The position numbers and the translations under genes are program-made. The notes under the pieces were generated by a model, which was given only the letters and a program-made list of their open reading frames with translations, had not been told where the DNA came from and ran no database searches. Source: a virus. Taken from it: a stretch of 64,000 nt of DNA. The stretch lies in IMG/VR virus record IMGVR_UViG_3300015371_000011, positions 17,480 through 81,479 of that record. One strand, given 5' to 3'. Positions 9,333-26,530 of this stretch are shown here, in pieces (the first letter of the stretch is position 1; every line of letters starts with the position of its first letter).

Positions 9333-9337
9333 CGCCG

Positions 9338-9900: not shown

Positions 9901-11409
9901 TCATATCACGTTTGCACTAGTAATAGTATTCTCCAACAACCGCCTCTTCAAATCGTGGCCGAGCATAAAGCCAATCTCCATGATTGCCCGCGGCCCAAAC
10001 TTGCCTAACACATAGGCGCGATACGACTCGTCACTAAAATACCGCTTGAATGCATAATCCCTAAACGCCAGTACTTCTTCTGGCAGCAGGTACTTGGTCC
10101 CTAACGGCTCGTGCTCGTAACTGTGAAACGACCAGGCCAGCCAGTCTTTCGGTGGTGTCCAGCCTTGCTTGATTTTGTCATTCCAGAGTTGGCTACCAGG
10201 GAAGGCCACGGTGCAATACATATTCACGTATTCTGTCTTTAATTCGAGCGCAAGCTGCAGCGTGTCATTCATGGATTCTAGTGTGTCGTTAGGCAGGCCA
10301 AACATATAATTGGCAATGATATTTATGCCGTGCTGCTTAATGCGATTCACGGTGTCGATAATATCGTCACGACCATAGTCGCCCTTGTCTACACCGTCGC
10401 GTACCTCATCGGACACGGATTCAATTCCCAGACACAGCCACTTGAATCCGGCTTGCCGCATTTTATCCAGGAATCTGTCTTTGGTCTGATCAACACGGCC
10501 GTAACACCACAGGTTGAGCCTGTCACCGTAACGCTCTCTAATCCCGTCGCAAATGGATTCCACATGGTGCGGTTGCAGCACGAACATCTCATCATTAATT
10601 CGTATATTGGTAACGCCATAAGTCTCCACCAGTATGTCTAGCTCACGCATGACGGACGGCGCCGACCACATGCGATACATATTCACGCCGTCACGCCTAG
10701 TCGCTAGCTTGTTGCCTTCGCTAAATGGCGAATTAATCATGCAAAATGAGCACGCAAACGGGCAGCCGAGTGACGTGTAGATCGATGCGTATGGCGTGCG
10801 CTCGAAGTTATTCGTCCAGGCGTGGTGCGCGTAGGAGCGATAGCGGGCCATCGGCAGCAAATCCCAGCAATCGCCGGGCATGTCGTGGTCGAGGTCTTGG
10901 ACGTTAGGAGCGTGTTGCGGTGATTCACTCGGCACCACGCCGCGCACCGTACCTGCCAAACCTTTCAGCTTGCACACCATATCAAACACGCTAATCGGCC
11001 CTTCGCCCGTACAAACATAATCCGCACCCGTTTCACGCAAACTTTGATAAGGCAATGCCGCTGGATGACCGCCTATCAGCATTATAGGCATATCTGGCAT
11101 GACAGCCTTAAGCGCTTTAACCGTGGCCGCAGCCGCTGGCATTTTCTGCGTGCTGGCCGATGGCTGTGTACCGTGCACTATCACGCATACGAGCTTCGGT
11201 TGGAGGTGGCTTGCTAGCCTAGCCACAGTCTCGGCGTCATAGCCCATCGCCTCGGCGTCCAATATCATCACACTGATGTTTTTACGGCGCAGATATGACG
11301 CGATCAGGCGGCAGTGGATAGGCGGCTCGATGGCCGTTAAGCCTGCGCCCGTCAAGCCTTGAAAGACTTTATGCGGCTCGCCTGGATTGATGAGGATAAC
11401 GTCAGCCAT
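9901..11409 (-). CDS. B12-binding radical SAM enzyme
   Basis: N-terminal cobalamin domain (IGGHPAALP, GEG), TSLGCPFACSFC, LGIES, NYMFGLP. Confidence 0.9.
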   Translation of the reverse strand: MADVILINPGEPHKVFQGLTGAGLTAIEPPIHCRLIASYLRRKNISVMILDAEAMGYDAETVARLASHLQPKLVCVIVHGTQPSASTQKMPAAAATVKALKAVMPDMPIMLIGGHPAALPYQSLRETGADYVCTGEGPISVFDMVCKLKGLAGTVRGVVPSESPQHAPNVQDLDHDMPGDCWDLLPMARYRSYAHHAWTNNFERTPYASIYTSLGCPFACSFCMINSPFSEGNKLATRRDGVNMYRMWSAPSVMRELDILVETYGVTNIRINDEMFVLQPHHVESICDGIRERYGDRLNLWCYGRVDQTKDRFLDKMRQAGFKWLCLGIESVSDEVRDGVDKGDYGRDDIIDTVNRIKQHGINIIANYMFGLPNDTLESMNDTLQLALELKTEYVNMYCTVAFPGSQLWNDKIKQGWTPPKDWLAWSFHSYEHEPLGTKYLLPEEVLAFRDYAFKRYFSDESYRAYVLGKFGPRAIMEIGFMLGHDLKRRLLENTITSANVI

Positions 11410-12307
11410 GCCGCTCTGCCCATTTCAGAAAATAGCCCGTCGGGTCACGAAAGAATTTCTGCACCACATTGACAAAATACTGCCGCGCATTGCGTGAATC
11501 ACTAGTCGGCTCAATGTGCAATATGCGCTCAAACTCGTTATGCATCTCCCAATCCGTCGCCCTAGTTGATACCTGATAGATAAAGTCCAACGGCTCGTCA
11601 TCTTCGGCCAATATCGGCGAGTCCGCAATCACAATCGGCACACGGCCAAACGCGCACGCCTCATACAGCCGTGCCGTATGGTGGCCCGCACCACCTGGAC
11701 ACAGGCAAAACGCGTTATCAAGCATGCCCTGAATGTAACTTGCCGCAATCTCGTGCTGCGGCGGCACCACCGCGCCCCAGAATTGATTCGTCTTGATCTC
11801 GGCAGGCAGCCCCTTACATGCGTCAATCATACGCTGGCGCAGGCCGTTCGGCTCAGGCTGGCCATTGAAATACAGGCGCCTGAGTGGCGGCGATGTCCAT
11901 TCGGGTGCGCCATCGTCTACGAGTTGCATGAGTAGTCGGCTACACGGCGGACGTGCCATAAAGCGCCAGCCTTGCTGCACTTTCCCTGCGCGGCTGTAGG
12001 CATTCATGACGATGAGCGTTGCAGGCTTCAGCCATTCGGGCCATTCAATGCACCACCAATCACCCTCTAAATCAAAAATGTGCTTGCGCTCACGACCTTT
12101 ATAGTGCTCAAAACGATTCGGGTGCAGCAAGAACGCCACGTTATTGTGGTAGCGGCCGCACCAAAACCAATCCGCGGCGCCAGGGTCGGTTGTCACGGCA
12201 AAGTGCGCGTCCACGTCGGCCTGATTAGCAAATGGCCAGCGCTCGAATCCCTGCGTGGGATACTTGTCAACGAGGGCGTCAGGGTAAATGAATAGCTTAG
12301 GCTTCAA
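11402..12307 (-). CDS. exostosin-like (GT47) glycosyltransferase
   Basis: LYFNG...LRQRM...FCLCPGGAG..TARLYEACAFGRVPIVIAD. Confidence 0.75.
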   Translation of the reverse strand: MKPKLFIYPDALVDKYPTQGFERWPFANQADVDAHFAVTTDPGAADWFWCGRYHNNVAFLLHPNRFEHYKGRERKHIFDLEGDWWCIEWPEWLKPATLIVMNAYSRAGKVQQGWRFMARPPCSRLLMQLVDDGAPEWTSPPLRRLYFNGQPEPNGLRQRMIDACKGLPAEIKTNQFWGAVVPPQHEIAASYIQGMLDNAFCLCPGGAGHHTARLYEACAFGRVPIVIADSPILAEDDEPLDFIYQVSTRATDWEMHNEFERILHIEPTSDSRNARQYFVNVVQKFFRDPTGYFLKWAERHG

Positions 12308-12694
12308 TTTTTACGTCGCCACGTTTCTCCACACACATTACAGCGCCAGTATTCAGCGTGGTTAGGATCGCCTATGTCCTTTAACAAAGCTACCAAACAA
12401 CTTGTAAATGCATCGCACTTTGGACAGAACTGCTCTTCAGGTAAACCAAATGGATTGTCACGCTCTGCCTTTAGGGCTTCACTTTTCTTTCTCATACGGC
12501 GCCAGCGCCCGCTCCGACATCACTTCTTCTATAAACTCGCCATCACGCAGCGCTTTGATTGCGCACAGATAACAGGCATACACCATATTACGCGCATCAC
12601 GGTAACGGATACGCCAGCACGCGGGTTTGGCCCCGCATATTTCACAGACAAGACGCGTGTCACCTCCACTATAAGAAAACGCTGCGGTATTCAT
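12304..12694 (-). CDS. two small Zn-finger proteins (12304-12495, 12479-12694)
   Basis: CPKC...CNVC and CEIC...CYLC. Confidence 0.5.
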
Positions 12695-12703
12695 TCATCC
12701 CTT

Positions 12704-13582
12704 TCATTCCCATGCCCCCCACGGCGACGGCGTGCGCACCGATTCACGCCCCTCTCGTATTGCCGCTATGCGCTCCACAAACATGCGGTGGTTATCCTCG
12801 GCGCTTCGCTGCCACGGCTTGACAATCGAGTGCGCCAACCGCGGCAGGCCATAAACGCCAATCTTGTAGTTGCACGTCGGCAACAAGCAAAATTTCCAAC
12901 CTACCATCTCCGCCCTGATACCAATATGAATATCCTGTGACGCATAGCCGCCGTCAAATCTCTCATCCCAGCCATTGATTTCCTTCAGCACGGCTAGCGG
13001 TATCGAATCATTAAGGCTCGCATACCATTTATCGCCCGGCATGCGAAACATTTCAGTCTCGCCTATGCGCTCGCCCTGCATGCCGCCTTTGCGCTCGCGA
13101 TAAACAGGCTCGACACAATCAAAGTAATGCCGCGCACGCTCGGCGGTAAACTCATCGGTAAACGACGTCCACCAGACATCTTCAATCTCTTTCGAGTCAT
13201 TCATCGCCGGCCACGGATAGCGGTCCAAATAACCGCTGGCCGAGTAACCAGACAGATTCTTGTAGATATTCCAATGATCACGCAGGTAATACGGGTAGGC
13301 CCAGATATAATCGTTGAGAAAACAAATCAGCTCGCCCTCGGCATGGCGCAGGCCAGTATTCCAGCCTGCACAGTGGTCTATGTAATCGTGTGGCGTTGGC
13401 GGGACGTGCCTAAATGCAGGAATGAAATAATCATCTACAAACCTTTTGCGCGCTTCATGCCATTCATCGACATAAATCACTTCGAACTGTGGCGCATCTA
13501 CCTGTGCTTTCATCGAATTGATAAGCATGTCCAAGCCGCCGAGCGAGATTGTGGTGGTGATGACAGAGATGCTCATTGCCAA
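12704..13582 (-). CDS. GT2-family (GT-A) glycosyltransferase
   Basis: ISVIT, EVIYVD, NTGLRHAEGELICFLND, INGWDERFDGGYASQD. Confidence 0.85.
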   Translation of the reverse strand: MAMSISVITTTISLGGLDMLINSMKAQVDAPQFEVIYVDEWHEARKRFVDDYFIPAFRHVPPTPHDYIDHCAGWNTGLRHAEGELICFLNDYIWAYPYYLRDHWNIYKNLSGYSASGYLDRYPWPAMNDSKEIEDVWWTSFTDEFTAERARHYFDCVEPVYRERKGGMQGERIGETEMFRMPGDKWYASLNDSIPLAVLKEINGWDERFDGGYASQDIHIGIRAEMVGWKFCLLPTCNYKIGVYGLPRLAHSIVKPWQRSAEDNHRMFVERIAAIREGRESVRTPSPWGAWE

Positions 13583-14544
13583 TCTTCGCCTAGATAATCC
13601 TTGATGCGCTTCACCACGCCATCAACGGTAAGTCCGTACTTTTTGTGCGCCTCGTCCCTACCCCACGGCTCAAAGTGATACACGTCAGGTATGCCGACGC
13701 GCAGTAACGAATTAAGGTTGTCGGCATCATGCAGGACTTCGCTCACAATCGAGCCAAGGCCACCGCTCAAGAAATGTTCTTCTAGTGTGATGATATTTTT
13801 CTGGCCTACGTGCGCTAGAAATTCATCTTTATCAAAAGGCCATACCCGCGCCACATCGACTACGCCAAATTCTAATTTCTCCTTTAGAAAAAATTCGCTC
13901 ACCTTCAATGCCGTGTGCGTCATGATGCCTGACGAGACGATCCATGCATCACACTCGGACTTGCGCCAATTAGGATACAAAAACGTCAACGGCTTAAAGT
14001 CGTATTCGTCGGCCTTGTAGATATTCGGTATGCCTGCCCGATCAAATCTAATATATTTCGGCGTTAGCCGCTCATAGCTGAGTTTCGCCAATGCAGCGCC
14101 ACAGACTGAATCGGCTGGCGAGTATATCTCCAAGCCACAGCATGTGCGCATGATCGAAATGTCGTCCGCCGTATGATGCGACGGACCCATCTCCGCATAA
14201 GCATAGCCTGCACCCACACCAAGAATCGTAATAGGCAATTTCGAAGCACACACATCTAGCTTCACAAACTCATGGACATGACTGGTCGCAAACGGGGCGA
14301 TGCAGTACGTCCATACGCGTTTGCCTTCCTGCGCTAATCCAGATGCCATACCAATCATGTTTTGCTCGGCTATGCCTACCTGAATAAACTGGCGTGGCGT
14401 CTGCTCGACAAACTGATCGAGACTCGGTGCGCCATTGTCGGCGGTTATCAGAATGCAATTCGAGTCAGCTTTGAAAATATCGAATAGCGCATTGAAAAAG
14501 GCGTCGCGCTGGCCAATGATTCGCGGCGTTGCTTCGTAGCTCAT
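13573..14544 (-). CDS. transketolase C-terminal (pyrimidine-binding) subunit
   Basis: GIAEQNMIGMASGLA, GPSHH...D, YIRF, TLEEHFLSGGLGS. Confidence 0.92.
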   Translation of the reverse strand: MSYEATPRIIGQRDAFFNALFDIFKADSNCILITADNGAPSLDQFVEQTPRQFIQVGIAEQNMIGMASGLAQEGKRVWTYCIAPFATSHVHEFVKLDVCASKLPITILGVGAGYAYAEMGPSHHTADDISIMRTCCGLEIYSPADSVCGAALAKLSYERLTPKYIRFDRAGIPNIYKADEYDFKPLTFLYPNWRKSECDAWIVSSGIMTHTALKVSEFFLKEKLEFGVVDVARVWPFDKDEFLAHVGQKNIITLEEHFLSGGLGSIVSEVLHDADNLNSLLRVGIPDVYHFEPWGRDEAHKKYGLTVDGVVKRIKDYLGEDWQ

Positions 14545-15407
14545 TCCATGCCCAACTCTTTCTTGCTTTGCTCTAAGTCCGCGCCTAGGGGCGCTCTATA
14601 ATGCCAGAGCCGCACATCTTGCATTACGCTTGCCCCGTGGCCCTTGTCCGTATGCGCGATAACGCATAGCGGTTTGGTAATCAACGGCCAGTCACGAAAG
14701 CCTTCTAGCGACTTGAATATATCGTTGAAGTCATGCCCGTCACATTCTCTAATCTCACACCCAAATGCCGCTAGCTTATTTGCCAACGGGTCAAGGCCAG
14801 GCCCATCGGACGCATAGAGCAATTCATCGTGCATACCGATTGTCGCTTGCTTGTTGTTATCTACAATCAGAATCAGGTGGCCATACGCCCCTACCGCCGA
14901 CGACTCGTTGTATCGTCCACCCGCCGTGAATAGCGCCTCCCAATTGCTGCCCTCGTAAAGCTCGCCGTCACCGAGCAAGCAAAATATGAAATGCTTTTTG
15001 TTGGCAAGCCGTGCGGCGTGCGCCATGCCCAGGGCTATCGGCAAGCCATGCCCTAGCGATCCTGTCAGGACTTCAATCCCAGGCACGTTGTATTCAGCAT
15101 GCACGCCGAGAATGCCACCAGGGGATGCGAAGCGGTCTATCTCTTCTTCGCTGAAAAAACCCAAATCGGCTAGGATTGGATATAAGCCGAGTCCACCCTG
15201 CCCCTTTGAGAGAATGAATCTGTCACGCCCATCCCATTTCGGATTCTTCGGGTCTACGTTTAGAAGCCCACCGTAATAGAGCGCCACGGTCAACTCCATT
15301 TGCGAGAAGGCCGTGCTCACATGGCCCGACTCTTTTCTAACCGCCATCTCCAAAACCTGGCGCCGCATCTGGAGCGCCTTGCCTGCCAGAAACTCAACAT
15401 CAATCAC
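14541..15407 (-). CDS. transketolase N-terminal (TPP-binding) subunit
   Basis: RDRFILSKG, TGSLGHGL, GDGELYEGSNWEA...DNN, DGHD, HTDKGHG. Confidence 0.92.
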   Translation of the reverse strand: MIDVEFLAGKALQMRRQVLEMAVRKESGHVSTAFSQMELTVALYYGGLLNVDPKNPKWDGRDRFILSKGQGGLGLYPILADLGFFSEEEIDRFASPGGILGVHAEYNVPGIEVLTGSLGHGLPIALGMAHAARLANKKHFIFCLLGDGELYEGSNWEALFTAGGRYNESSAVGAYGHLILIVDNNKQATIGMHDELLYASDGPGLDPLANKLAAFGCEIRECDGHDFNDIFKSLEGFRDWPLITKPLCVIAHTDKGHGASVMQDVRLWHYRAPLGADLEQSKKELGME

Positions 15408-16344
15408 GATTCACCGCCTTTAATTCATCCACCAGCCATTCAAGGCTTTCAGTCAAACCAATCTTTGCCGTCCAGCCCGTCTCGATGCAAAACTTATCGC
15501 AATCGGGCACTGCGTAGAAAACATCCGTCGGCCGGCGCAGCGTCTCTTTCTCGTGCCACTCGGCATACACGGGCACAATGCGCCTTAGCTCGTCGGCTAT
15601 GCGCTGGATGCTGCACGGCTCCTCGCTACCGATATTGTAAACGCCCGGCCCGCATTTCGTGGCCGCGAGATAGTACGCCTTCACAATATCCCTCACATCA
15701 CAAAACGTACGCACGGGCGACAAATCGCCATGCTCAATCACATCCGTGTCGCCGCGTGAGAACTGCACGAGCTGATAGGCTAGCGACGTAGCCACCAGGT
15801 CGGGACGGCGCGGATTGATATAACCAAAGGCGCGCGTAATCACCAGCGGGAATCCTGCCATCATCGAATAGCAATTGGCGTAGTGCTCCTGACACGATTT
15901 CGTCACCGCATACGGGCTGCACGGATTGTGCGGCTGCTCTTCACGAATCGGGTTTTCTATCTGCGGCACATTGCCGTAAATCTCGGATGATGACGCCAAC
16001 ACTACCTTCGGCTTTAACCCGCTTTCGGCTATGGCGTGAAAGAGGTTAAGAGTACCGCCGACATTATTGGCTAGAAACAATTCAGGCTCAGCGAAACACC
16101 GCTTCACGTTGGCAATACCCGCCAAATGAATAATCACTTCGGGATTAGCGTTTTTTAAAGCACGAGCAATCTTTTCATTATCCGTTGCTAGATTTATTGG
16201 ATGTGAATAAACGTCAAGATACTTCGCCACTTCACCAGCTACAGGCTTGCGGCCGATGCCATACACCGTCTCGCCTGCCTCTTTTAGAAACTTGGCCTGA
16301 TAGTAGCCAACCGCGCCCGTGGCGCCGACGATAAGAAACCTCAC
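15400..16344 (-). CDS. NDP-sugar SDR, GDP-mannose 4,6-dehydratase / 4-keto-6-deoxy reductase family
   Basis: GATGAVG, IHLAG, SSSEIYG, SPYAVTK, GDLSPVRTFCDVRD. Confidence 0.85.
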   Translation of the reverse strand: MRFLIVGATGAVGYYQAKFLKEAGETVYGIGRKPVAGEVAKYLDVYSHPINLATDNEKIARALKNANPEVIIHLAGIANVKRCFAEPELFLANNVGGTLNLFHAIAESGLKPKVVLASSSEIYGNVPQIENPIREEQPHNPCSPYAVTKSCQEHYANCYSMMAGFPLVITRAFGYINPRRPDLVATSLAYQLVQFSRGDTDVIEHGDLSPVRTFCDVRDIVKAYYLAATKCGPGVYNIGSEEPCSIQRIADELRRIVPVYAEWHEKETLRRPTDVFYAVPDCDKFCIETGWTAKIGLTESLEWLVDELKAVNRD

Positions 16345-17312: not shown

Positions 17313-17347
17313 CTAACCGAAACGGCGCGCCTTCGACGCCGACGCGC

Positions 17348-17536
17348 CTAGCCTCGGTGAATTTTCTCGGCTTCCTCCTTTGTGTTTATTTTCTTCTCTG
17401 ACACACCCGACATCTGAGCGCGTAGCCAATTGTCGTAGACTTCAAGCAGCATCACCTCGACGCCATTCGGCCATATCCCCTTTTGCGCACAGTGCTCCAG
17501 AAAGGCTTGCAGGCGGTCGCTAAAGCGTTGGCTCAT
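17348..17536 (-). CDS. hypothetical protein
   Basis: 62 aa, in operon. Confidence 0.45.
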   Translation of the reverse strand: MSQRFSDRLQAFLEHCAQKGIWPNGVEVMLLEVYDNWLRAQMSGVSEKKINTKEEAEKIHRG

Positions 17537-17538
17537 GA

Positions 17539-17916
17539 TTAAAACCTCTTGCCGCCTGCAAAGTTTAAAGGGATTTTGTGCTTAACGCTTTTCCATGCAA
17601 CCAAGCGGTCGGGTGCCCATGAGTACCAGATATAAACTTCAAGAATGTTATTCTGCTCAAGCAAGTCGAAAGTCCGCGCCTGATTCGGAGAAACGCTATC
17701 GTTTGGTCCTTTGACTTCAACGCCAATCGTCTTGCCGTTAAACCGCACTAAAAAATCAGGCCAGCTAGGACGATGGACCACCGTCCAATTATGGATATGC
17801 GCACGCTTGACAAAATCTTGCTCAGCAGGCACTAGCCGTTCAGGTATAACTTTAAAATTCTTTGCCTTTTTGATTTCCTTAGCGATGAATTTTCGCAAGC
17901 TAGGACTCAGGCTCAT
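17539..17916 (-). CDS. VRR-NUC-like PD-(D/E)XK nuclease
   Basis: WPDF...VEVKGPNDSVSPNQ. Confidence 0.75.
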   Translation of the reverse strand: MSLSPSLRKFIAKEIKKAKNFKVIPERLVPAEQDFVKRAHIHNWTVVHRPSWPDFLVRFNGKTIGVEVKGPNDSVSPNQARTFDLLEQNNILEVYIWYSWAPDRLVAWKSVKHKIPLNFAGGKRF

Positions 17917-18149
17917 TGATTCTCTCCGTTCTTAACAAGCCGCCCCATTACGCGATGAAACTCAAGACTCCACTTGCCATATTCTTTTACCCGCGAATAA
18001 ACCTCGTCCGCTAGTTTCTCGGCACGCGGTATTAGGCTATTGCGCCAGTCGATATAGTCACAGTTATGGACGTGCAAATCATTGCGCAGAACGGGTTGAC
18101 CGTTGCGATATTCAATCTTGCCCTCGGCACAGCTACAAAACACAGTCAT
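17913..18149 (-). CDS. hypothetical protein
   Basis: 78 aa, coupled. Confidence 0.5.
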   Translation of the reverse strand: MTVFCSCAEGKIEYRNGQPVLRNDLHVHNCDYIDWRNSLIPRAEKLADEVYSRVKEYGKWSLEFHRVMGRLVKNGENQ

Positions 18150-19134
18150 TGGTAATAGCTTTCTCCGTCATCACAATCCTTGTCCCCTCTTTATGCACAT
18201 CCCAGCGGTTAAACCGCATGCCATAGTGAAAATGATCGACATACGGTATCTCGTATTGCGGCGGCGACTCCACGCGTATCGACAGGCCAGCCGTGTACTG
18301 ATCCTTGATCATAGCCCGTATCCCGCTGTTGTCGCCCACGTATGGCGGGCCGTAATCGCCGTCAGCCAGAATGAATGCCATATCGCGCCTATCGGCATCG
18401 TCAAACTTGACGCTGCGCTCATTGAGCACCTTATAGCCCGCCGCCTTTAATAGCGTGGACATCGACTCCCACGTAAAATTGCACTTATGCGCGAAATAGA
18501 AGGCGTCGCTCCAGTTTATAATTTGAAACGCGTGCGGCACCTCTAGGTAAACAATACCCTTCGGCTTCAGTATGGACTTCAAGCCGCGCATGACGGCGAG
18601 CGGGTCGCGGCAATGCTCTAGGACGTGCGACATGACGACTAGGTTGAAATCCAGCAGCCGCTCTTCACATAACTGCTCGATAGTTGTGCCATCGCCCATC
18701 GGCTCCACGCCGCACACGTCCAGATAGCCCGCCTCCTTAAACGCGTCCACGCCCTCATAGCTAGCCGCGCCAACGTCAAGAATATGGGCATTATGCTTCA
18801 CGTATGGTGCCACCATCTCGGCGCGTTTACGGTAGGCGGCAAACCTAGCCGCGCTATACGGCCGCTTATACGGCGGCTGCAATTCGGCCATGCGGGTAAA
18901 CCAATCGTCGGTAGGCGATAACGCGCGCCAGCTAAACGTGCATTGCTTGCAAATCACCGTCTGGTGCACGCATAAACGGCCGATATAGACACTTGCCGCC
19001 TCATCGAAGGCACTCACACCGCATATCGCGCACGAGCCGCGAAACACCAAATCGGCGTGCGCAATCGGATAGCGCGTTACTGGCTCGGCGGCGATGGCGG
19101 CTAAGCGGGCATCTTTGAAGTCGTGGGTTAACAT
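18133..19134 (-). CDS. class I SAM methyltransferase with N-terminal Zn ribbon (sugar-MTase-like)
   Basis: CAIC...CKQC, ILDVGA, MSHVLEH..DP, LKPKGIVYLEVP. Confidence 0.85.
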   Translation of the reverse strand: MLTHDFKDARLAAIAAEPVTRYPIAHADLVFRGSCAICGVSAFDEAASVYIGRLCVHQTVICKQCTFSWRALSPTDDWFTRMAELQPPYKRPYSAARFAAYRKRAEMVAPYVKHNAHILDVGAASYEGVDAFKEAGYLDVCGVEPMGDGTTIEQLCEERLLDFNLVVMSHVLEHCRDPLAVMRGLKSILKPKGIVYLEVPHAFQIINWSDAFYFAHKCNFTWESMSTLLKAAGYKVLNERSVKFDDADRRDMAFILADGDYGPPYVGDNSGIRAMIKDQYTAGLSIRVESPPQYEIPYVDHFHYGMRFNRWDVHKEGTRIVMTEKAITNDCVL

Positions 19135-19264
19135 TTTTTCATATACACGAATCGGCTGGCCTTGGAGCAGTAGCCTTTATAGCCGCGCTTGGTCATAAAA
19201 CTTCTATCCACACGGCGGCGCATATCACGCCTGATTATCTCGCCGCACTTTGGACACAATAACT

Positions 19265-20248
19265 TCACGCCAACCCCGCAATCCGAAACATGCCCTTCCA
19301 GAATTGCCGCCCGTCAAATATCTCTTTGGCCTTTTTCGCGCCTGCCTCGGCTATCCTTGCCGCCTCATTTTGCCCTGGCCCTAAATAGTATTTGAGTCTA
19401 TCCACCAGCGTTGATGCGCCCTCGAAGCCAATGGCACCATTAGCCAGCAAGTGAAACGGCTCGCTGAATTTTACGTAATGCTTGAATTCATCTAATAGGC
19501 GCGGCGTCTCGTCGTTCGCGCTCTCCATCAACATTGCGCCGCATAAAGTCGCCTCAGACGTCCTGCCATTTAGGTGCTGAAACGTGACGGCACTGGTGAA
19601 ATTTAGCGTAATCTTGGATCGGCGCAGCAACCACGCATAGGCGTCGATGCTATCCACTTTCTGCCCGACGATGCCGCCGCCGCGAGTCACGGCTATGCCC
19701 ATACCATCAAGCCAGCCGAGATTGAGCGCACGGTCGAGACGGCCCGACGTACTGCCGATAAAGCTCAGCGGTATGTCGCGCTCGCCAAACGGCGCAGAAT
19801 AGAATATGCGCGGGTCTTTCGGCTCAGGCAGCCAAAACGTCTTGTCGGCAAACGACGTGAATTGTTTCCAGTGCTCGGCGGTATCGACAAACACATTGGC
19901 CGTGACGTGTGGCGCATACATATCGGCGTGCAGCACCACATTCGGCGCGCTCTCTAGCCACAGGCCAATGACGGGTATCTTGTAGCGGTCGCGCAGAAAG
20001 CGAAACAACTCAGGCTCGATATTGCCCGCAAAATTCACTAGCGGCGTTGCCACAATCAAGTCTGGATTCCAACCGCTGGCATACGCGGCCAGCGCCTTGT
20101 GGCCGTCCTCACTCACGTCAAACCAGTAGCGCTTAATATCAAATCCCAGCGCCTCGGCTGCACCGATTGAGCAATACTCGTGCGGTGATTGGCGTAAGTC
20201 GCTCTCATAGCCGTGCATCGTTTTGTGCGTGGCGAATAGGATTTTCAT
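19265..20248 (-). CDS. GT-B glycosyltransferase (CgeB / Glyco_trans_1_2-like)
   Basis: LSFIGS...R, RSKITLNF...GRTSEATLCGAML...IAEAG; ATGA-coupled start MKILF at 20248. Confidence 0.8.
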   Translation of the reverse strand: MKILFATHKTMHGYESDLRQSPHEYCSIGAAEALGFDIKRYWFDVSEDGHKALAAYASGWNPDLIVATPLVNFAGNIEPELFRFLRDRYKIPVIGLWLESAPNVVLHADMYAPHVTANVFVDTAEHWKQFTSFADKTFWLPEPKDPRIFYSAPFGERDIPLSFIGSTSGRLDRALNLGWLDGMGIAVTRGGGIVGQKVDSIDAYAWLLRRSKITLNFTSAVTFQHLNGRTSEATLCGAMLMESANDETPRLLDEFKHYVKFSEPFHLLANGAIGFEGASTLVDRLKYYLGPGQNEAARIAEAGAKKAKEIFDGRQFWKGMFRIAGLA

Positions 20249-20895
20249 GCGAATTTTAGGACTTCTTGCGCCATGCGTTTGGCAGCTATCTCGCAATATT
20301 TCTCTTCTATCTCGATACCAATAGCCTTGCGGCCCAAGTCCTTAGCGGCTCGCAATGTGGTTCCGCTGCCCATGAAGGGGTCAAGAATGGTTTCATCCTG
20401 CTGACAATAATTCGTCAAACACCAATTCATCAATTTTAATGGCTTCTGCGTCGGATGGTCTCGTAGTGTCTCTTTGCCTAACAAACCATTCCATTCAATT
20501 GTTATTTTTTTTACAGACTTACGATTGAATGAAGTCCAAGCTAATTCACAATCGCCAAAAGTTGGCATGGTGTTTAATTTATCCCAACTAATCCAATGGG
20601 TAGAGCGTGGCAACAAATCAGCAAAAAAATTACCGCCCCAAATAATAGCGTTTGATGCCATGTCTAAAATCATCAAAAAAATCTCTTGGCTAGGCCGTTC
20701 TGCGTCCCACGCATCAATGTACTGGCGTCGCCTAATAGGCGTGCCAAAGCCGCCAAAGCCGTCAAAGCCGTGTGACATACTCACACCATACGGCGGATCA
20801 GTCAGCACTAAATCCACCGGCTCAAGCTGCAGCAGTATTTCTCTACAATCCCCATGAAATATCGTCACCGCATCGTCCTGGTAATAGGGTTTCAT
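20245..20895 (-). CDS. N6/N4 DNA methyltransferase
   Basis: TDPPYG, HPTQKP, DPFMGSGTT. Confidence 0.92.
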   Translation of the reverse strand: MKPYYQDDAVTIFHGDCREILLQLEPVDLVLTDPPYGVSMSHGFDGFGGFGTPIRRRQYIDAWDAERPSQEIFLMILDMASNAIIWGGNFFADLLPRSTHWISWDKLNTMPTFGDCELAWTSFNRKSVKKITIEWNGLLGKETLRDHPTQKPLKLMNWCLTNYCQQDETILDPFMGSGTTLRAAKDLGRKAIGIEIEEKYCEIAAKRMAQEVLKFA

Positions 20896-23876
20896 AGCAA
20901 TAATATCTGCCCCGACTTGCGCCCGTAGAGCACGACTTCACGCGCAAACTTCTTCTTATCGCCGCCGTAATGCCACGGCGTGGGTATGCGCCACATCTGG
21001 TTTTCAATCACAGTGTCGTCGTACAGAAGCCCGCCCGTCTCGTCGTAGAATCCCGCCAAGTCATCGGCTGCCCTGAAAAATGTGGCCTCCTCTGGCCCCC
21101 AGTAAACCTCGCCGTACTCAGGCATGAGCGCCGCTATCGGCTCGCCACGCTCAAGCACGCCGTCAAGAATCTTATTGTACTCGGCCATCTCGTTGCGCCA
21201 GAAAGCGCCGTTGCTGTACATAATCGCTTCGATGAATGTGCTCGGCATAATACCCTTGGTAAGCAAGTCCTGCAGGATAAAAATACCCAACTTTAGCCCG
21301 TGCAGCGCCATAAAAATCCATGAAAAAATATTCATGCGCCGCCACTTGACTATGTCCATACTGCTCGTCTCGACAACCAAATCCTCATACTCGGCCAGAT
21401 AACCATCGGCCCGTACCGTGCCGTGAATCTCGGCTAACTCTATACGCCGTGTGCGGATACCAAACTGCGCCTGATAGTCGGGCCGGCCCATCTCGGTATT
21501 AGGCAAGGCCATCAGCGGGTAGATAAACACCTGCCCACTCATGCCAGCCGCCACGATCTCGTCCAGCCCCTGCTTCCACGTCTCGTATGTCTCACCCGGC
21601 AGCCCGACAATAAATTCGCTATATGTCGGCACGCCTTCGGCGTTGAAACGCTCCTGCAGCTTCTCGTAGGTAGACATTTTGATATTGCTGCGCTTGATAT
21701 TCTGCAGCACCGTGGCGTTGTTGCTTTGGCGTGCGAGCGTGACGCTTTTAGACATGCCTGCGTCGGCTAGCATCTTGCCTACGGCGTAAACCTTGTCGTC
21801 GGTGTTCTTGCCGTAATTGACGCGAAACCGCTGCGGATAGCCGTATTTCTCTTTGGTGGCTATCAGGTACTCGGCTATTTCACGGTCGCGTGCGAGCATG
21901 CCAAAATTCGACGCGCTCCCAAGTGCATACGGGATTTTATTACGCCCCAACCATTCAATCTCCGCAAATACTCGGTCTAGTCCATAGTAGCTCATCTTGT
22001 GTTGCCCAAGTCCATATTCGCAGAATGAACAATTTTCACAGAGCAACCCGTTAGCAAAAAAATTATGATTCGGCGTAGCTTCAACAATATCATAAACTCG
22101 CCGATGCTCGCTTGGCGAAATCTCTTCTACTGCACACCAAGAAACCTTTGCAGTCGTTGCACCATCGCTTCGTTCAACTTGTCGTCGTTCCAAATCACAA
22201 AAATCTCCCAACCGAAATATTGATAATCTGCCGCTTCCATTTCCACGTCCTTTTCCTCTTGGTGCCAATAACGACCATGAGCGAGAATCGCTTTTCTTAC
22301 TCCCTTTTTGCAGTGGATAAAATCTGGATTGCGACAACCTCCCGATACTCCCGGCCCCAACCAAAATGTCCTGTCGCCAGTATATTTGAATGGCAGTTGA
22401 TACTGTTGAAAAAATTTTATCAGCTTGCTCTCGAAACCATTCGGCGGCTCGCCAGCCTTTAAAAAATGAGCGGCATGCCATTGCGGATCGTTCCAATATT
22501 GCCGCATCTTTTGCTTCCACGATTCGATCATTTGCTTGTGCTTGATTGGATCTAACCGTCGCATCGGATTGTTGTCGCCAGTTTGCCATGCGTAACCGAG
22601 CCTCTTGCTTGTTTCCACCCCTTTCCTCGCATGTGCTAGTCGTTGTTCTCGACTCATTCGCCGCATTGGACTGTTGTCGCCAGTGAATTTCAGGTAGTGC
22701 CCCATTGCTCGTTGCGTTGCTACCACCTTCGCTACGTGTTCTGGCGATTTCTTTATTCCCTTGTTCATACCCGGATGTCTGTAGAGACCCGCTGCTGCTG
22801 CCCTCTTTATCCCCTCTATTCGCCGCTCTTCGCCTCCGCTTTGCTTCCGACTTGCTGCAGCTTTGATTCCCCGGAGTCTTTGCACTTCCAACGGAGTCGT
22901 TAATACTCTCTGTCTCAAGTGCGGCAGATAGCACCCCATCGAACAATACATCCTCTCTTTTGGCCGATGATCTATCGACGTTCCACAACCCTTGCAAAAT
23001 CTTGTCGCCGACTTTAAGGTCGCCTGCTGTAACCCATCCCCTGTCGGTGTAAAAAGGATGATCTCTAGTTGCTCCAATTTCAGAACCTCCCGCTACTATC
23101 TTGATGGTTTCCTTAATGCCGCTACAAATCGAAAATGCGACTCTATTCCACGCAAGGCATTCGTCTTTCTCATTCCAACCTAAAATATAATCACCGGACT
23201 GCACTGCTTCTATATTTTTTTGCCCTGTTTGAGTAACTACCACCGTTCCTTCCGCGAGACACATAAATGGGCATCCGCGATCCTGCTCCAAGACGTAGCT
23301 ATACTCTATTGGCTCTGGATGCTGCTCCAATAACCCGTCAAATAAGCCGGTCAACGCGGGCGACGGCAATTCATTCAACTCTTTCTGAAACGGATAATCC
23401 TGAGCGCAGTAGTGCACATCATTGTCTCGATACGTTATCTGCGGGATACCTTCAAAGTCCGTGCTGTGAGTTTCCGCCCAACGCTTTAATACGGCAGTAA
23501 ACGCCTGCTCACCCGCGCGTCTGACAGCTACGTCGATAAATGGATGCTTGGATAAATACTCAATGGCGTTATCGGGCACCTGCAATCCACCAAACACAAT
23601 CAGGCACTCAGGCCAACGGCGTTTCACTTCGGCGGCTACTGCCAGGTTTAATTGCTCATTCCACACCGCCACAGAGAAAGCCGCCACGTCCACACGGTTG
23701 TCATAGTGCTTGAGAATATTGGCCGGCTTATCCACGCAGTAAAGAAAATCGCCAAACTCGTAATTGGCCTTGATGTCGTCATTCTGCTCGGCATAGGCGC
23801 GCAGCAATCCCGTAGCCAGCGGCAAGTAGCAGTTGCGGCCGAGCCTGATGTTATATTCGTTTAGGACTACGCGCAT
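20892..23876 (-). CDS. B12-binding radical SAM enzyme with intein
   Basis: YLPLATG, FSVAVWN, FGG..VP; RGCPFM|CSFC after splicing; NFGMLARD, GLPGET. Confidence 0.9.
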   Translation of the reverse strand: MRVVLNEYNIRLGRNCYLPLATGLLRAYAEQNDDIKANYEFGDFLYCVDKPANILKHYDNRVDVAAFSVAVWNEQLNLAVAAEVKRRWPECLIVFGGLQVPDNAIEYLSKHPFIDVAVRRAGEQAFTAVLKRWAETHSTDFEGIPQITYRDNDVHYCAQDYPFQKELNELPSPALTGLFDGLLEQHPEPIEYSYVLEQDRGCPFMCLAEGTVVVTQTGQKNIEAVQSGDYILGWNEKDECLAWNRVAFSICSGIKETIKIVAGGSEIGATRDHPFYTDRGWVTAGDLKVGDKILQGLWNVDRSSAKREDVLFDGVLSAALETESINDSVGSAKTPGNQSCSKSEAKRRRRAANRGDKEGSSSGSLQTSGYEQGNKEIARTRSEGGSNATSNGALPEIHWRQQSNAANESRTTTSTCEERGGNKQEARLRMANWRQQSDATVRSNQAQANDRIVEAKDAAILERSAMACRSFFKGWRAAEWFREQADKIFSTVSTAIQIYWRQDILVGAGSIGRLSQSRFYPLQKGSKKSDSRSWSLLAPRGKGRGNGSGRLSIFRLGDFCDLERRQVERSDGATTAKVSWCAVEEISPSEHRRVYDIVEATPNHNFFANGLLCENCSFCEYGLGQHKMSYYGLDRVFAEIEWLGRNKIPYALGSASNFGMLARDREIAEYLIATKEKYGYPQRFRVNYGKNTDDKVYAVGKMLADAGMSKSVTLARQSNNATVLQNIKRSNIKMSTYEKLQERFNAEGVPTYSEFIVGLPGETYETWKQGLDEIVAAGMSGQVFIYPLMALPNTEMGRPDYQAQFGIRTRRIELAEIHGTVRADGYLAEYEDLVVETSSMDIVKWRRMNIFSWIFMALHGLKLGIFILQDLLTKGIMPSTFIEAIMYSNGAFWRNEMAEYNKILDGVLERGEPIAALMPEYGEVYWGPEEATFFRAADDLAGFYDETGGLLYDDTVIENQMWRIPTPWHYGGDKKKFAREVVLYGRKSGQILLL
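22032..23261 (-). mobile_element. 410-aa intein inserted in the radical SAM CxxxCxxC motif
   Basis: starts CLAEGTVV, block B ATRDHPF, DLKVGD, ends VYDIVEATPNHNFFANGLLCEN followed by +1 Cys. Confidence 0.9.
22127..23077 (-). CDS. nested +1-frame endonuclease (Zn finger + NUMOD3-like repeats + Vsr/DUF559-like nuclease)
   Basis: CKGC...YCSMGC; NKGIKKSPEHVAK, GDNSPM, GDNNPM; PNGFE...PDF...HGRYWH...GWEIFVIW; GGAGGT (23085-23090) 7 nt before TTG start. Confidence 0.85.
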   Translation of the reverse strand: MEQLEIILFTPTGDGLQQATLKSATRFCKGCGTSIDHRPKERMYCSMGCYLPHLRQRVLTTPLEVQRLRGIKAAASRKQSGGEERRIEGIKRAAAAGLYRHPGMNKGIKKSPEHVAKVVATQRAMGHYLKFTGDNSPMRRMSREQRLAHARKGVETSKRLGYAWQTGDNNPMRRLDPIKHKQMIESWKQKMRQYWNDPQWHAAHFLKAGEPPNGFESKLIKFFQQYQLPFKYTGDRTFWLGPGVSGGCRNPDFIHCKKGVRKAILAHGRYWHQEEKDVEMEAADYQYFGWEIFVIWNDDKLNEAMVQRLQRFLGVQ

Positions 23877-25372
23877 GACGACACACCCGTTATCATTGCA
23901 TCCATCTGTACTCGCACAATCCGCGACACAGGCTTGACCGCCTTCTTCAGCACTTCGAAAATATACCGCATGTGCTCTTCGTTAAGCCCAGGATGCACGC
24001 CAACGAAAAAGCCGCCATGCATGATTCTGTCCGTATTTGCCAAGGTGCCGTGCACACGGTGCGTAATGCCGCTAAACGCGGGTTGGCGTAGCAGGTTGCC
24101 CGCGAATATCGGCCGCGTCTCAATCTTAGCGGCCTCTAACGCCGCTATGATTTCACGCGTAGGCACGCCGCTGTTATTGATTAGCGGGTAAGCATACGGC
24201 GACGGGTCGGCGCGTGAATCCCACTTTGACAATATGAAATAGTCAGCCAACTCGGCGCGGCACATGGCGTGCAGCGTGTTGAAGTTTTCTTGCCGCTTGC
24301 CGATGATCGTGCCTAGTTTATCAAACTGAGCACACAGCACCGCCGCCTGCATATCGGTTGCCTGCATATTGTAGCCGATATTTGAATACTGATATTTGTG
24401 ATCGGTCCCTGGCGGCAATCCTGGCGTGTCCCATTCAAACCGCTTGCCGCAGGTATTTTCTTTGCCTGGCGCGCAGTAGCACGACCGACCCCATTGCGAG
24501 ATTGAGCGTGCTGCTATTTTCAATTTAGGGTTATTGACGATGACGCTGCCCGCCTCGCCGCAAGTCGTATGGTGCGCAGGGTAGTGGCTCAGAGATGCCA
24601 TGTCGCCGAAGGTGCCAGTCAGCATGCCGTCAAACCTAGAGCCTAGCGCATCGCAATTGTCCTCTAAGAACAACAAGCCATTCTTGGCACAGAAATATTT
24701 CACCGCGGCGCAATCAAACGGCAGGCCCATCGGGTGCGGTAGCATGACGGCGCGCGTCCTTGGCCCAACTGCACTAACAATGTCCGTGAATGTCGGGTTA
24801 TAGGTGCCAAGACCCACGTCCACGAATACAGGCACAAGCCGATTTTGAATAATCGGCGCTAGCGTAGTCGGGAATCCCGCCGCCACGGTTATAACTTCAT
24901 CGCCATCCTGCAGCGGCCTAAGTCCGTATTGCGCAATGTCCTTGCTGCATACCGTGGCAAGCATGAGCAGGTTGGCCGATGAGCCGCTATTGACGAGCAA
25001 GACGTCGCGCGCGCCAAAATACTTGATCATGGACGTCTCGAATTGCTCCGTCCACTTGCCCGCCGTCATCCATTGCGACAATGCCACGTCTATCAGGTTG
25101 AGCGTTTCCTGTTCGTCAAAGAAATGCTTGCTGTAGTGGATCTTTGTCTGGCCTGGGATGAAGTCCTGCGGCGTGTGCAACGCCTGCACGAATTTCTTAG
25201 CCAAGTCCCAGATCAACTCAACGGTGGCGTCCATTATCGCCGCCCGCCCATGACCTTGCTCATTTACCAACCTCATTGAGCCATTCGGTCGCTTTTTCGA
25301 GCACGGTGAGGAATCCACCTTCATAAACTCGGTCGCCATATTTAACGGTGCAGGACGGTGATAGATCAGCAA
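23867..25372 (-). CDS. rfbH: CDP-4-keto-6-deoxyglucose 3-dehydrase (RfbH/DdhC); probable start 25234
   Basis: NSGSSANL, EDNCDALGS, SHYPAHHTTCGEAG (His at the usual Lys position), 2Fe-2S motif WGRSCYC...NTC, DHKY, GYN. Confidence 0.92.
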   Translation of the reverse strand: MLIYHRPAPLNMATEFMKVDSSPCSKKRPNGSMRLVNEQGHGRAAIMDATVELIWDLAKKFVQALHTPQDFIPGQTKIHYSKHFFDEQETLNLIDVALSQWMTAGKWTEQFETSMIKYFGARDVLLVNSGSSANLLMLATVCSKDIAQYGLRPLQDGDEVITVAAGFPTTLAPIIQNRLVPVFVDVGLGTYNPTFTDIVSAVGPRTRAVMLPHPMGLPFDCAAVKYFCAKNGLLFLEDNCDALGSRFDGMLTGTFGDMASLSHYPAHHTTCGEAGSVIVNNPKLKIAARSISQWGRSCYCAPGKENTCGKRFEWDTPGLPPGTDHKYQYSNIGYNMQATDMQAAVLCAQFDKLGTIIGKRQENFNTLHAMCRAELADYFILSKWDSRADPSPYAYPLINNSGVPTREIIAALEAAKIETRPIFAGNLLRQPAFSGITHRVHGTLANTDRIMHGGFFVGVHPGLNEEHMRYIFEVLKKAVKPVSRIVRVQMDAMITGVSSCA

Positions 25373-25502
25373 ATGTGCGCACCGTTATATTCACCGCTAA
25401 CGGCCATTTATAACCCTTACCCGAAAGTGCGCTGTCAGATTGCCGTGTCGTCACAACACATAGCGCCGCCAAGAATTCATCGACAACCTTACTCATTTTC
25501 AA
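25260..25502 (-). CDS. hypothetical protein
   Basis: 80 aa between epimerase and rfbH. Confidence 0.45.
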   Translation of the reverse strand: MKMSKVVDEFLAALCVVTTRQSDSALSGKGYKWPLAVNITVRTFADLSPSCTVKYGDRVYEGGFLTVLEKATEWLNEVGK

Positions 25503-26530
25503 TCCTTCTCATTACAATAATACTCGTACGTCCGTCGCAGCCCATCATCCAGCGACACGGCTGGCGGCGGCGCTAACTTCAATATCTTGCTGGTATCGGG
25601 CCGCCTGCGGCTCGGCGCATCGCTTAACCGCTCCTGATTGTCCACATGCTTCATTTCGAGTTTCGGGAATAGCGCCTGCGCCGTCCAGCCAAAGGCGTTG
25701 ATCGACACCTCGCTATTGCCGTCGCCCACGTTATAGGCTTCACCATTCTCACCGTCGAGCAGCACGGCCATGAATTGCAGCACGGCATCGCTGATATAAA
25801 CGAATGAGCGCGTAGCACGGCCGTCGCCGTAAATGGTTAGCGGCGTCTCCGTCATTAGCGCCTGCATGAGCTGAGGCACTAGGCGACCATCGTCTACGGC
25901 TTCGCCCGGCCCGTAGATATTAAACGGTCGCACCACCTTTACGGGCACGCCATGCATCTTGTGGTAAATCTGGCATAGTGTCTCGCTTAACCGCTTGCTT
26001 TCGTCATACGGGCTTGATGGCCCCGTAAACGAGCAATTGCCCCAATACGTTTCTGGCGTGGGTATAAACAGCGCAAACGGATCGCCGTAAACCTGCACGC
26101 TTGAAAAATGCAGCACCGCCTTGGAGCGTGACTCCAGCGCCAACCCCAGAATCACCTTAGTCAAGTCCACGTTAGCTTCAATCGTCTCTAACGGCTTTTC
26201 TAAGTACATTTTGGCCGACGCTATGGACGCTAGGTGAATGTAATAATCGGCCCCCGCCGCGCCCATATAGGCCAGCGGCGCCTCACACTGGAGCAGCTTG
26301 ACGTCCGTACCCCGCACGACGCGACTAGGGGCAATCATCGTGTCATAGCCCGTAACCTTGACGGACTTCTTGAAATATGTCTCGTTGGCGTAGGCAACCA
26401 GGCCCATCAGGTAGCTGCCGACAAACCCCGCGGCGCCAGTAATAAATACCTTGGCCCCCGCTAAATCCTTGAAAGTAGGCGTGATGGCATCGAGGATGCT
26501 GTCATAGTCGGATTGTAAGACGGGATTCAT
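25499..26530 (-). CDS. NAD-dependent epimerase/dehydratase, UDP-glucuronate decarboxylase-like
   Basis: TGAAGFVG, HLASIAS, PTPETYWGN..GP..YDESKR.SET, FNIYGP, YGDGRATRSF. Confidence 0.85.
   Translation of the reverse strand: MNPVLQSDYDSILDAITPTFKDLAGAKVFITGAAGFVGSYLMGLVAYANETYFKKSVKVTGYDTMIAPSRVVRGTDVKLLQCEAPLAYMGAAGADYYIHLASIASAKMYLEKPLETIEANVDLTKVILGLALESRSKAVLHFSSVQVYGDPFALFIPTPETYWGNCSFTGPSSPYDESKRLSETLCQIYHKMHGVPVKVVRPFNIYGPGEAVDDGRLVPQLMQALMTETPLTIYGDGRATRSFVYISDAVLQFMAVLLDGENGEAYNVGDGNSEVSINAFGWTAQALFPKLEMKHVDNQERLSDAPSRRRPDTSKILKLAPPPAVSLDDGLRRTYEYYCNEKD

Follow-up and report, generated by a model that had tools for sequence, protein, structure and literature searches.

Known phage virion glycosylation relies on a few transferases and ordinary host sugars, and in mycobacteriophages it draws on host nucleotide sugars and needs only a few genes. 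Glycosylated virions are attributed to mycobacteriophages Che8, Corndog and Myrna in the passages of PMC11600133 and PMC12619734 that cite Freeman et al. 2023. Some branched sugars are made by thiamine diphosphate (ThDP)-dependent enzymes of the YerE type, which use the product of the 3-dehydrase E1, a nucleoside diphosphate (NDP)-3,6-dideoxy-4-keto sugar, as acceptor and yield yersiniose, erwiniose and caryophyllose (PMC9306805). A 2025 review proposes split-gene transketolases as a third, unproven class, for hydroxyacetyl transfer to keto sugars; this class is known only from Streptomyces antibiotic clusters, those for miharamycin and amipurimycin plus 13 more, and has no member characterised in vitro (PMC12247030). 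According to the same source, ThDP biocatalysts able to attach functionalised C2 units to ketones are in demand for access to chiral tertiary alcohols (PMC12247030). Here we describe a sugar-tailoring gene cluster with a split transketolase in IMG/VR virus record IMGVR_UViG_3300015371_000011. The stretch analysed (the window) comprises 64,000 nucleotides, positions 17,480 to 81,479 of the record, and the cluster occupies window positions 9901–26530 on the minus strand, which at 16.6 kb is about one fifth of the phage genome. Our leading interpretation, held tentatively at a little under an even chance, is that this late operon works in the cytoplasm on a nucleotide sugar supplied by the host and that the tailored product goes most likely to the phage's own virion proteins.

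The virus record (81,479 bp) closes on itself via a 123-bp terminal direct repeat, has a CheckV completeness of 100% in IMG/VR, and is a complete, circularly closed soil (rhizosphere) phage, apparently siphovirus-type and non-integrating. About 119 genes lie on the minus strand. TerL, portal, MuF, head protease and major head protein genes are followed by a fusion of a GT4 glycosyltransferase, a methyltransferase and a GT2 glycosyltransferase and then by fibre-like proteins; past the genome junction come neck and tail genes, a tape measure, a lambda-J-like tip, a short early region (exonuclease, nucleases and DNA methylases), the sugar operon, and the packaging genes again. The cluster genes lie on one strand and are chained by overlaps of 4–17 nt, with a VRR-NUC nuclease, a DNA N6/N4 methylase and two mini-proteins with two CxxC pairs each interleaved and translationally coupled with the sugar genes. 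The cluster is one tightly coupled late operon beside the packaging genes. The related phage fragment L088 carries a homolog of the first of the two radical S-adenosylmethionine (SAM) enzymes (62–76% identity) directly upstream of TerL, the same place as here.

The initial annotation had described the pathway as part of the phage, and the complete genome, the terminal repeat, the CheckV value and the overlaps of sugar genes with methylase, VRR-NUC and zinc-ribbon open reading frames (ORFs) bear this out; the gene types it listed, all on the minus strand, were recovered with Pfam and NCBIfam. Contig coverage did not point to a chimeric fusion with a host lipopolysaccharide locus. Short contigs identical to the phage were found at ~3x depth in several 2012 rhizosphere metagenome runs, and three of four runs covered all 30 bins across 8000–27500. 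The contigs showed no foreign junction within the cluster, although the runs may themselves be the source of the phage assembly. The suggested position just before terS is right in that packaging genes adjoin and TerL is confirmed at 4636–7107, although terS is only putative and a further DNA methylase lies between TerL and the cluster. No near relative among isolated phages was found by megablast of the cluster, which had no match in 50,697 phage records, or by tblastn of TerL, which recovered relatives of only 39–45% identity (psiM2 and Gordonia phages). A host call from these relatives was dropped at so low a best identity. Promoter and terminator scans gave matches at chance level.

A DdhC-type route to a 3,6-dideoxy-4-keto intermediate, as first annotated, proved well founded. 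The E1 of the cluster matches NF011936 with 523 bits against a cut-off of 423 (profile positions 11–437 of 440) and aligns over its full length with Yersinia E1 (3BCX; 380 bits, ~50% identical). The catalytic His220 is kept (YPAHH aligning with YPAHH of E1, the H220K mutant 3BB8 reading AKH), as are the [2Fe-2S] ligands Cys193, 251, 253 and 261 in the spacing C-X57-C-X1-C-X7-C (EDNCDALG, SCYCAPGKENTC). We predict a true E1/RfbH 3-dehydrase with all catalytic features for an NDP-3,6-dideoxy-4-keto-hexose present. Homology begins at residue 54 of the ORF, and the true start probably lies downstream, near 25234.

The three NDP-sugar short-chain dehydrogenases/reductases (SDRs) expected from the initial annotation are all present, but one is interrupted and another lacks the residues of a dehydratase. 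The SDR at 15400–16344 has as its best solved relatives GDP-6-deoxy-D-lyxo-4-hexulose reductase (Rmd; 124 bits) and GDP-mannose/heptose 4,6-dehydratases (Gmd and others), carries an SSEIYG motif, and would be of the GDP-4-keto-6-deoxy-sugar reductase or GDP-hexose/heptose 4,6-dehydratase type. The Fcl-like SDR, homologs of which are present in bacterial loci described below, contains a single in-frame TAA at 16782–16784 in place of the Tyr of the conserved NLYGP; with the TAA read as Tyr, GDP-fucose synthases are matched full length (173 bits). A tRNA scan of the phage found none, and therefore no suppressor explains the stop. No variant at these three positions was seen in the contigs of the rhizosphere runs, at ~3x depth, with exact cover of the site not listed and the runs possibly the assembly's own source. 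The 343-aa SDR is closest to UDP-xylose synthase (UXS), with UDP-glucuronate decarboxylase as its best solved relative (145 bits); STSE is replaced by SSVQ, which is not TDE either, YxxxK is kept, and the acid/base dyad of 4,6-dehydratases is missing, making it a probable NDP-sugar epimerase or ketoreductase rather than a canonical 4,6-dehydratase. The SDR partners look GDP-type and not CDP-type, and GDP-linked substrates are favoured because both the SDR relatives and the HddC-like genes of bacterial loci point there. Three RfbH loci from IMG/VR (L002–L004) were considered as the same system and rejected, sharing only E1 and one SDR with the cluster.

The transketolase is encoded by two separate ORFs, TK-N and TK-C, which overlap by 4 nt and stand in the same operon as E1 and the SDRs. 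The ThDP-binding GDG motif GDGELYEGSNWEA of TK-N and the cofactor-activating Glu in GIAEQN of TK-C are both kept. Three residues which we take to be the sugar-phosphate substrate contacts of transketolase, His66, His461 and Asp469 in E. coli numbering, are replaced: the first by Gln in TK-N (LSKGQG), the others by Gly and Met in TK-C, where GVGAGYAYAEMGPSHH stands against the canonical THAGxxVGEDGxSHQ. A canonical pentose-phosphate transketolase, carried as an auxiliary gene, was rejected as an identification since all three positions are changed. Among 160 loci fetched with TK-N from genomes and metagenomes, the same three substitutions define a clade of enzymes 40–65% identical, with Gln at the His66 position in 28 of 30 close loci and 1 of 91 distant ones, and the ordinary split transketolases of anaerobes (canonical, housekeeping-type) keep the canonical motifs. 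A homolog of the first radical SAM enzyme (38–53% identity) lies beside the transketolase at 27 of 39 variant loci as against none of 57 canonical loci (Fisher p ~1e-13, for loci that are not phylogenetically independent and include a few duplicates between collections).

Bacterial operons of the variant transketolase also encode a DegT/ColD-like enzyme, Fcl-like and Rmd-like SDRs and sometimes a second cobalamin (B12) radical SAM enzyme, and the order SDR, TK-N, TK-C recurs in them. A complete Lentisphaerota genome has a variant-transketolase operon with an HddA-like kinase, an HddC-like guanylyltransferase and a Wzm/Wzt exporter. The variant clade and the 502-aa radical SAM enzyme occur together in many uncultured bacteria, within GDP-sugar/heptose-type glycan loci. 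By homology, the phage carries the whole core of this uncharacterised bacterial sugar-tailoring cassette, with the ColD-type enzyme swapped for an Fe-S E1 and without the activation or export genes. The two subunits do not have the fold of an acetolactate-synthase-like, YerE-type decarboxylase: their best profiles are Transketolase_N, Transket_pyr and Transketolase_C, and TPP_enzyme_C reaches only 20 bits. The suggestion that a ThDP enzyme adds a C2 branch at C4 by the logic of yersiniose is a reasonable analogy, but the enzyme is neither YerE-like nor a normal transketolase and falls in a variant clade that is linked to a B12 radical SAM enzyme. No sugar pathway with a transketolase and a B12 radical SAM enzyme was found in the literature searched, in which the pair appears undescribed.

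An IMG/VR scan with TK-N returned nothing. Homologs of TK-N (79%) and of the GT47-like transferase of the cluster (78%) were each recorded on a 25,545-bp contig. On the 3-kb metagenome contig L106, homologs of E1 (57%) and variant TK-N (54%) lie side by side with a CgeB-like transferase (31%) between them; this is the closest outside parallel to the gene combination of the phage.

Two B12 radical SAM enzymes were annotated initially, and their Pfam domains and CxxxCxxC motifs agree with this, one of them carrying an intein within the motif. Enzyme no. 1, whose homologs adjoin the variant transketolase in bacterial and metagenome loci, has the motif CPFACSFC, a B12-binding domain at 49.8 bits (cut-off 32.1) and a distant match to HpnJ (115 bits). 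In enzyme no. 2 the intein lies between the first and second Cys of the motif (CPFM|CSFC), and splicing would restore CPFMCSFC. Its exteins match NF033712, the KedN5 family, contiguously (profile 16–206 at 90.7 bits and 208–401 at 144 bits), its B12-binding domain is sub-threshold at 25.7 bits, and it is predicted to be of the cobalamin-dependent C-methyltransferase type, distantly KedN5-like. An intein surviving in an Fe-S motif points to an active, conserved site. In the phage fragment L088, the homolog of the 502-aa enzyme gene is split at residue 399 by ~1.15 kb (L088:1077–2229), which may be an intein or homing-endonuclease insertion at a site other than that of the intein in enzyme no. 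2.

Three glycosyltransferases (GTs) belong to the cluster. An AlphaFold2 (AF2) model of the GT47-like protein (predicted local distance difference test, pLDDT, 84) has a GT-B fold and matches best the GT47 domains of EXT1/EXT2 and EXTL3 (template-modelling score 0.62–0.64). The GT2 model (pLDDT 95) is a clean GT-A fold matching K4CP, TarP and SpsA, matches that are generic to GT-A and from which nothing on the acceptor can be inferred. The nearest Atlas clusters of the CgeB-like protein consist to 92–100% of tailed-phage proteins and those of the GT2 are mostly from tailed phages, the two families together being 89–100% tailed-phage. Sequence searches of the PDB with the GT47-like, GT2 and CgeB-like proteins gave no matches. 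The phage has at least four DNA methyltransferases, which suggests that its DNA is protected by methylation.

What the phage lacks bears on where the sugar goes. In hidden Markov model (HMM) searches of the complete genome, each accompanied by matching positive-control genomes, no NTP_transferase (PF00483), polyprenyl-phosphate priming transferase (PF02397), tyrosine or serine integrase, or thymidylate-synthase-type hydroxymethylase (PF00303) was found, and a hydropathy scan of the cluster revealed no multi-transmembrane protein. All cluster enzymes are soluble, and no sugar activation, lipid priming or export is encoded. The initial statements that nucleotidyltransferase, DdhD and export are missing, and that the pathway is cytoplasmic and reliant on host precursors, were thus upheld on the complete genome. 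Lysogenic conversion was rejected for lack of either type of integrase, and a lipid-linked surface glycan and T-even-type DNA glycosylation are weakened because priming transferase and hydroxymethylase are absent, so that the DNA and host-surface alternatives offered at first both lose support.

Further indications come from the capsid-side fusion, a protein of 1049 aa whose gene follows that of the major head protein (phrog_1005, 234 bits) at a distance of three small genes. The fusion is syntenic in phage L086, although the capsids of the two phages share only 37% identity; behind its capsid gene L086 carries two methyltransferases, a nucleotidyltransferase-like gene, a GT4 and a methyltransferase–GT2, and neither a transketolase nor a cassette radical SAM gene was found in L086. 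A search of solved structures with the GT2 domain of the fusion gave four sequence relatives and no more: GmaR, two constructs of SunS, and the unnamed GT2-like chain 7MSK. The match to GmaR (E 1e-9) spans only 54 residues, and those to 7MSK and SunS have E values of 6e-7 to 3e-5. GmaR is presumably the Listeria flagellin O-GlcNAc transferase, and SunS we take to be a glycocin peptide glycosyltransferase. Three consecutive proteins encoded downstream of the fusion (L001:1527–4895) each have a hydrophobic N-terminal segment, and one of them, of 644 aa, combines a beta-helix with a LamG/ConA-like lectin domain; all three probably serve as fibres or in receptor binding and are candidates for carrying or binding glycans. 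Virion glycosylation is the best reading because activation, priming, export, integrase and hydroxymethylase genes are lacking and because the fusion beside the capsid gene has a GT2 domain like those of protein glycosyltransferases. The initial preference for virion proteins gains support from that fusion, although acceptor and sugar structure are still conjectural. We infer that the capsid-side fusion serves this phage lineage for the glycosylation of virion proteins and that this phage elaborates the glycan with its own exotic sugar and three further transferases.

The pathway could run as follows. A 4-keto-6-deoxy sugar, probably GDP-linked, would be supplied by the host (a Gmd-type enzyme) or by the Gmd/Rmd-like SDR, and E1 would remove the C3 oxygen with electrons from a host reductase. 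The variant split transketolase might then transfer a C2 ketol (hydroxyacetyl) group onto the ketone at C4, following yersiniose logic with a different ThDP enzyme, and an SDR would reduce the new side-chain ketone. Radical SAM enzyme no. 1 and the spliced, KedN5-like no. 2 may add C-methyl groups or carry out a radical rearrangement, and the SAM-dependent methyltransferase may O-methylate. The GT2, GT47-like and CgeB-like transferases would finally extend a glycan begun on capsid or tail proteins by the fusion.

Several observations weigh against this interpretation. The bacterial cassette feeds exported surface glycans and not protein glycosylation, and the operon also contains a DNA methylase and a nuclease. 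Cluster and fusion are 12–29 kb apart and may be unrelated, a related phage having only the fusion. Tblastn of the fusion against the 50,697 phage records gave no mycobacteriophage match and no homology to mycobacteriophage virion transferases. As to the chemistry, the E3 (DdhD) reductase partner is missing, no Fer2 or NAD_binding_1 domain having been found in the complete genome while positive controls matched, and a host reductase is therefore needed for E1. No 4,6-dehydratase can be assigned to the phage with certainty from its SDR sequences, and the pathway may be altered or decaying, given the stop in the Fcl-like gene of a conserved cassette. Branch, donor and step order are guesses, the variant transketolase and its radical SAM partner being uncharacterised.

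The closest homologs of the transketolase, radical SAM and SDR proteins lie in bacterial operons with Wzm/Wzt ATP-binding cassette (ABC) exporters and HddA/HddC-like genes, and E1 enzymes are classically O-antigen enzymes. Such company would suit remodelling of the host envelope, in which O-antigen, capsule or S-layer glycan is altered during infection by an unusual nucleotide sugar and additional transferases that enter the host's lipid-linked assembly line, for superinfection exclusion or to keep progeny off debris. We consider this distinctly unlikely: lysogenic conversion is improbable with neither type of integrase present, and the phage encodes no priming transferase, flippase, polymerase, transporter or membrane-anchored transferase. 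Its three transferases are without homologs in the bacterial cassette loci, save the 31% CgeB-like match in L106, two of the three belong to phage-dominated families, and the operon is placed as a late block beside packaging genes. If the sugar were instead put on phage bases against restriction, as in T-even phages, the translational coupling of a DNA methylase and a VRR-NUC inside the operon would make sense, and GT-B transferases modify T4 DNA, T4 BGT appearing far down the fold matches of the GT47-like model. DNA hypermodification is nevertheless very improbable, as neither a thymidylate-synthase-family hydroxymethylase (control genomes matched) nor, among the ORFs scanned, nucleotide-metabolism genes or a DNA polymerase were found, and the set of DNA methyltransferases suggests ordinary bases guarded by methylation. 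We know of no DNA glycosylation with 3,6-dideoxy or branched sugars, which also counts against it.

The in-frame TAA in a gene of the conserved cassette, together with population variants that delete a small ORF within the cluster, could mean that a newly captured bacterial cassette is losing function. Alternatively the transketolase could boost pentose-phosphate or sedoheptulose supply, and in bacteria the cassette does adjoin genes for heptose activation, a process that starts from a transketolase product. Decayed or auxiliary cargo of either kind is quite improbable in our view. All other genes are intact and translationally coupled over 16.6 kb, TK-N and GT47 are kept at 78–79% in the relative on the 25.5-kb contig and radical SAM enzyme no. 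1 at 62–76% in L088, an intein survives in the Fe-S motif of radical SAM enzyme no. 2, and a housekeeping role is unlikely because the presumed substrate contacts His461, Asp469 and His66 are lost. Least probable among the alternatives is glycosylation of a target outside the virion, be it a glycocin-like small peptide or metabolite or a cytoplasmic protein of the host; the small cysteine-rich ORFs of the cluster would fit, as would the kinship of the fusion GT2 domain with SunS, presumably a peptide modifier, but no precursor peptide, protease or exporter is evident and the SunS/GmaR-like domain lies in the head module, outside the cluster.

Table 1. Features of the sugar-tailoring cluster (window coordinates).
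Feature	Position	Strand	Basis
Extended SDR, 343 aa, UXS/4-epimerase-like	25499..26530	-	Pfam Epimerase 146.8 bits
Predicted E1/RfbH/DdhC-type pyridoxamine phosphate (PMP)- and [2Fe-2S]-dependent NDP-4-keto-6-deoxyhexose 3-dehydrase	23867..25372	-	NF011936 523 bits
B12 radical SAM enzyme no. 2, 994 aa with intein, distantly KedN5-family-like	20892..23876	-	Pfam HINT/Intein_splicing, B12-binding, Radical_SAM
Intein, aa 206-615 of radical SAM enzyme no. 2	22032..23261	-	Translation and boundary mapping
DNA N6/N4 methyltransferase	20245..20895	-	PF01555 97.9 bits; 4-nt overlaps on both sides
CgeB-like GT-B glycosyltransferase, probable start 20248	19265..20296	-	PF13524 41.1 bits, cut-off 25
SAM-dependent methyltransferase, candidate sugar O-methylase	18133..19134	-	Methyltransf_23 62.6 bits
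VRR-NUC nuclease	17539..17916	-	PF08774 29 bits, cut-off 23.8
GDP-L-fucose synthase-like SDR (3,5-epimerase/4-reductase type), in-frame TAA	16341..17312	-	Sequence read; read-through alignment
Rmd/Gmd-like SDR	15400..16344	-	GDP_Man_Dehyd 167 bits
Variant split transketolase, N-terminal (ThDP-binding) subunit TK-N	14541..15407	-	Transketolase_N 95.9 bits
Variant split transketolase, C-terminal (pyrimidine-binding) subunit TK-C	13573..14544	-	Transket_pyr 82.4, Transketolase_C 59.5 bits
GT-A (GT2) glycosyltransferase, soluble	12704..13582	-	Pfam 19.9 bits, below cut-off 23.3; AF2 model
Two zinc-ribbon-like small ORFs, 71 and 63 aa, two CxxC pairs each	12304..12694	-	Translations
GT47/exostosin-like GT-B glycosyltransferase, soluble	11402..12307	-	PF03016 41.5 bits, cut-off 33.4
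B12 radical SAM enzyme no. 1, 502 aa, nearest named families HpnJ and BchE	9901..11409	-	B12-binding 49.8, Radical_SAM 59.8 bits

Some features within and around the cluster (Table 1) stand apart from the pathway. The VRR-NUC nuclease is probably unrelated to the sugar chemistry. In run X2, one contig passes directly from 12299 to 12475 and lacks most of the 63-aa zinc-ribbon ORF, which seems dispensable or subject to a population indel. An ORF of 80 aa without a family match lies at window 25260–25502, between the UXS-like SDR and the probable E1 start. In TerL (823 aa), terminase profiles match aa 56–378 and 742–810 with ~360 aa between them, and tblastn to other phages also gives two pieces; the insert is probably an intein or other insertion. 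A 448-aa DNA methyltransferase at window 7489–8835, between the putative terS and TerL, spans only ~220 profile positions and therefore has inserted segments; contigs of runs X3 and X7 swap nt 8533–8725 for 40 other bases, a population variant within this gene, and L088 is without the gene. In the early region, a 231-aa ORF at window 32952–33647 matches only the C-terminal half of an AMP-binding (adenylation) domain (profile 170–384) and is predicted to be a truncated or stand-alone fragment. The MuF-like head protein (window 3–1484, continuing into L001; 838 aa in total) matches a PHROG of the ParB C-terminal domain and by its context is not a partition gene.

If virion glycosylation by this operon is true, the known products of phages would come to include a branched, methylated dideoxysugar made by the phage itself, and the cluster would offer a compact, complete context (16.6 kb, all soluble enzymes) for assigning function to the variant transketolase and B12 radical SAM cassette, which recurs in surface-glycan loci of many uncultured bacteria and for which no published biochemistry was found in the literature searched. 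Virion glycans affect immune recognition and possibly receptor or soil-matrix interactions. A bolder proposal, which we think rather unlikely though worth stating, is that the variant transketolase and B12 radical SAM enzyme form an unrecognised two-enzyme route to carbon-extended or branched deoxysugars, widespread in uncultured bacteria, and that the phage couples this route to E1, a second cobalamin C-methyltransferase and five GT domains, so that its virion would be coated with a kind of sugar for which there is no reported viral precedent.

Among described pathways, that of yersiniose A in Yersinia pseudotuberculosis (DdhA-C, E1/E3, YerE, YerF) resembles the phage cluster in having E1, a ThDP enzyme and reductase-type SDRs adjoining. 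The phage differs in that its ThDP enzyme is of the split transketolase type and not a YerE/acetolactate-synthase-type decarboxylase, that E3, cytidylyltransferase and CDP-glucose dehydratase are missing and the SDRs look GDP-type, that two B12 radical SAM enzymes are added, and that the carrier is a phage. The Streptomyces split-gene transketolases share with it a two-subunit enzyme beside keto-sugar-making enzymes and a predicted C2 ketol transfer to a ketone; they belong to actinomycete antibiotic clusters, whereas the phage enzyme falls in a clade of uncultured bacteria with a B12 radical SAM partner, the two being set apart here by description. The GDP-colitose and Campylobacter GDP-(3,6-di)deoxyheptose pathways (Gmd/DdahA, ColD, ColC/Fcl-like) likewise combine a Gmd/Rmd-like SDR, a PMP-dependent 3-dehydrase and an Fcl-like enzyme, and the bacterial relatives of the phage cassette carry HddA/HddC-like genes; in the phage, however, the dehydrase is an Fe-S E1 and not ColD, the Fcl-like gene is interrupted, and the transketolase and radical SAM steps are without counterpart in those pathways.

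Of the systems that deliver sugars, a Wzx/Wzy or ABC surface polysaccharide locus would have a nucleotidyltransferase, a priming transferase and a membrane exporter or polymerase, none of which is present in the phage, and the dCMP/dUMP hydroxymethylase of T-even DNA glycosylation is likewise missing from its genome. GmaR and SunS are partially similar to the GT2 domain of the capsid-side fusion, from which they differ in that the phage protein is a 1049-aa GT4–methyltransferase–GT2 fusion. Mycobacteriophage virion glycosylation shares with the phage soluble GTs and a methyltransferase near structural genes, here in the capsid-side fusion, and no export genes; there capsid and tail-tube proteins are decorated, whereas this phage adds a 16.6-kb sugar-tailoring pathway and its virion glycosylation is predicted from the genes. 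The system would be a variant both of phage virion glycosylation and of ThDP-dependent sugar branching.

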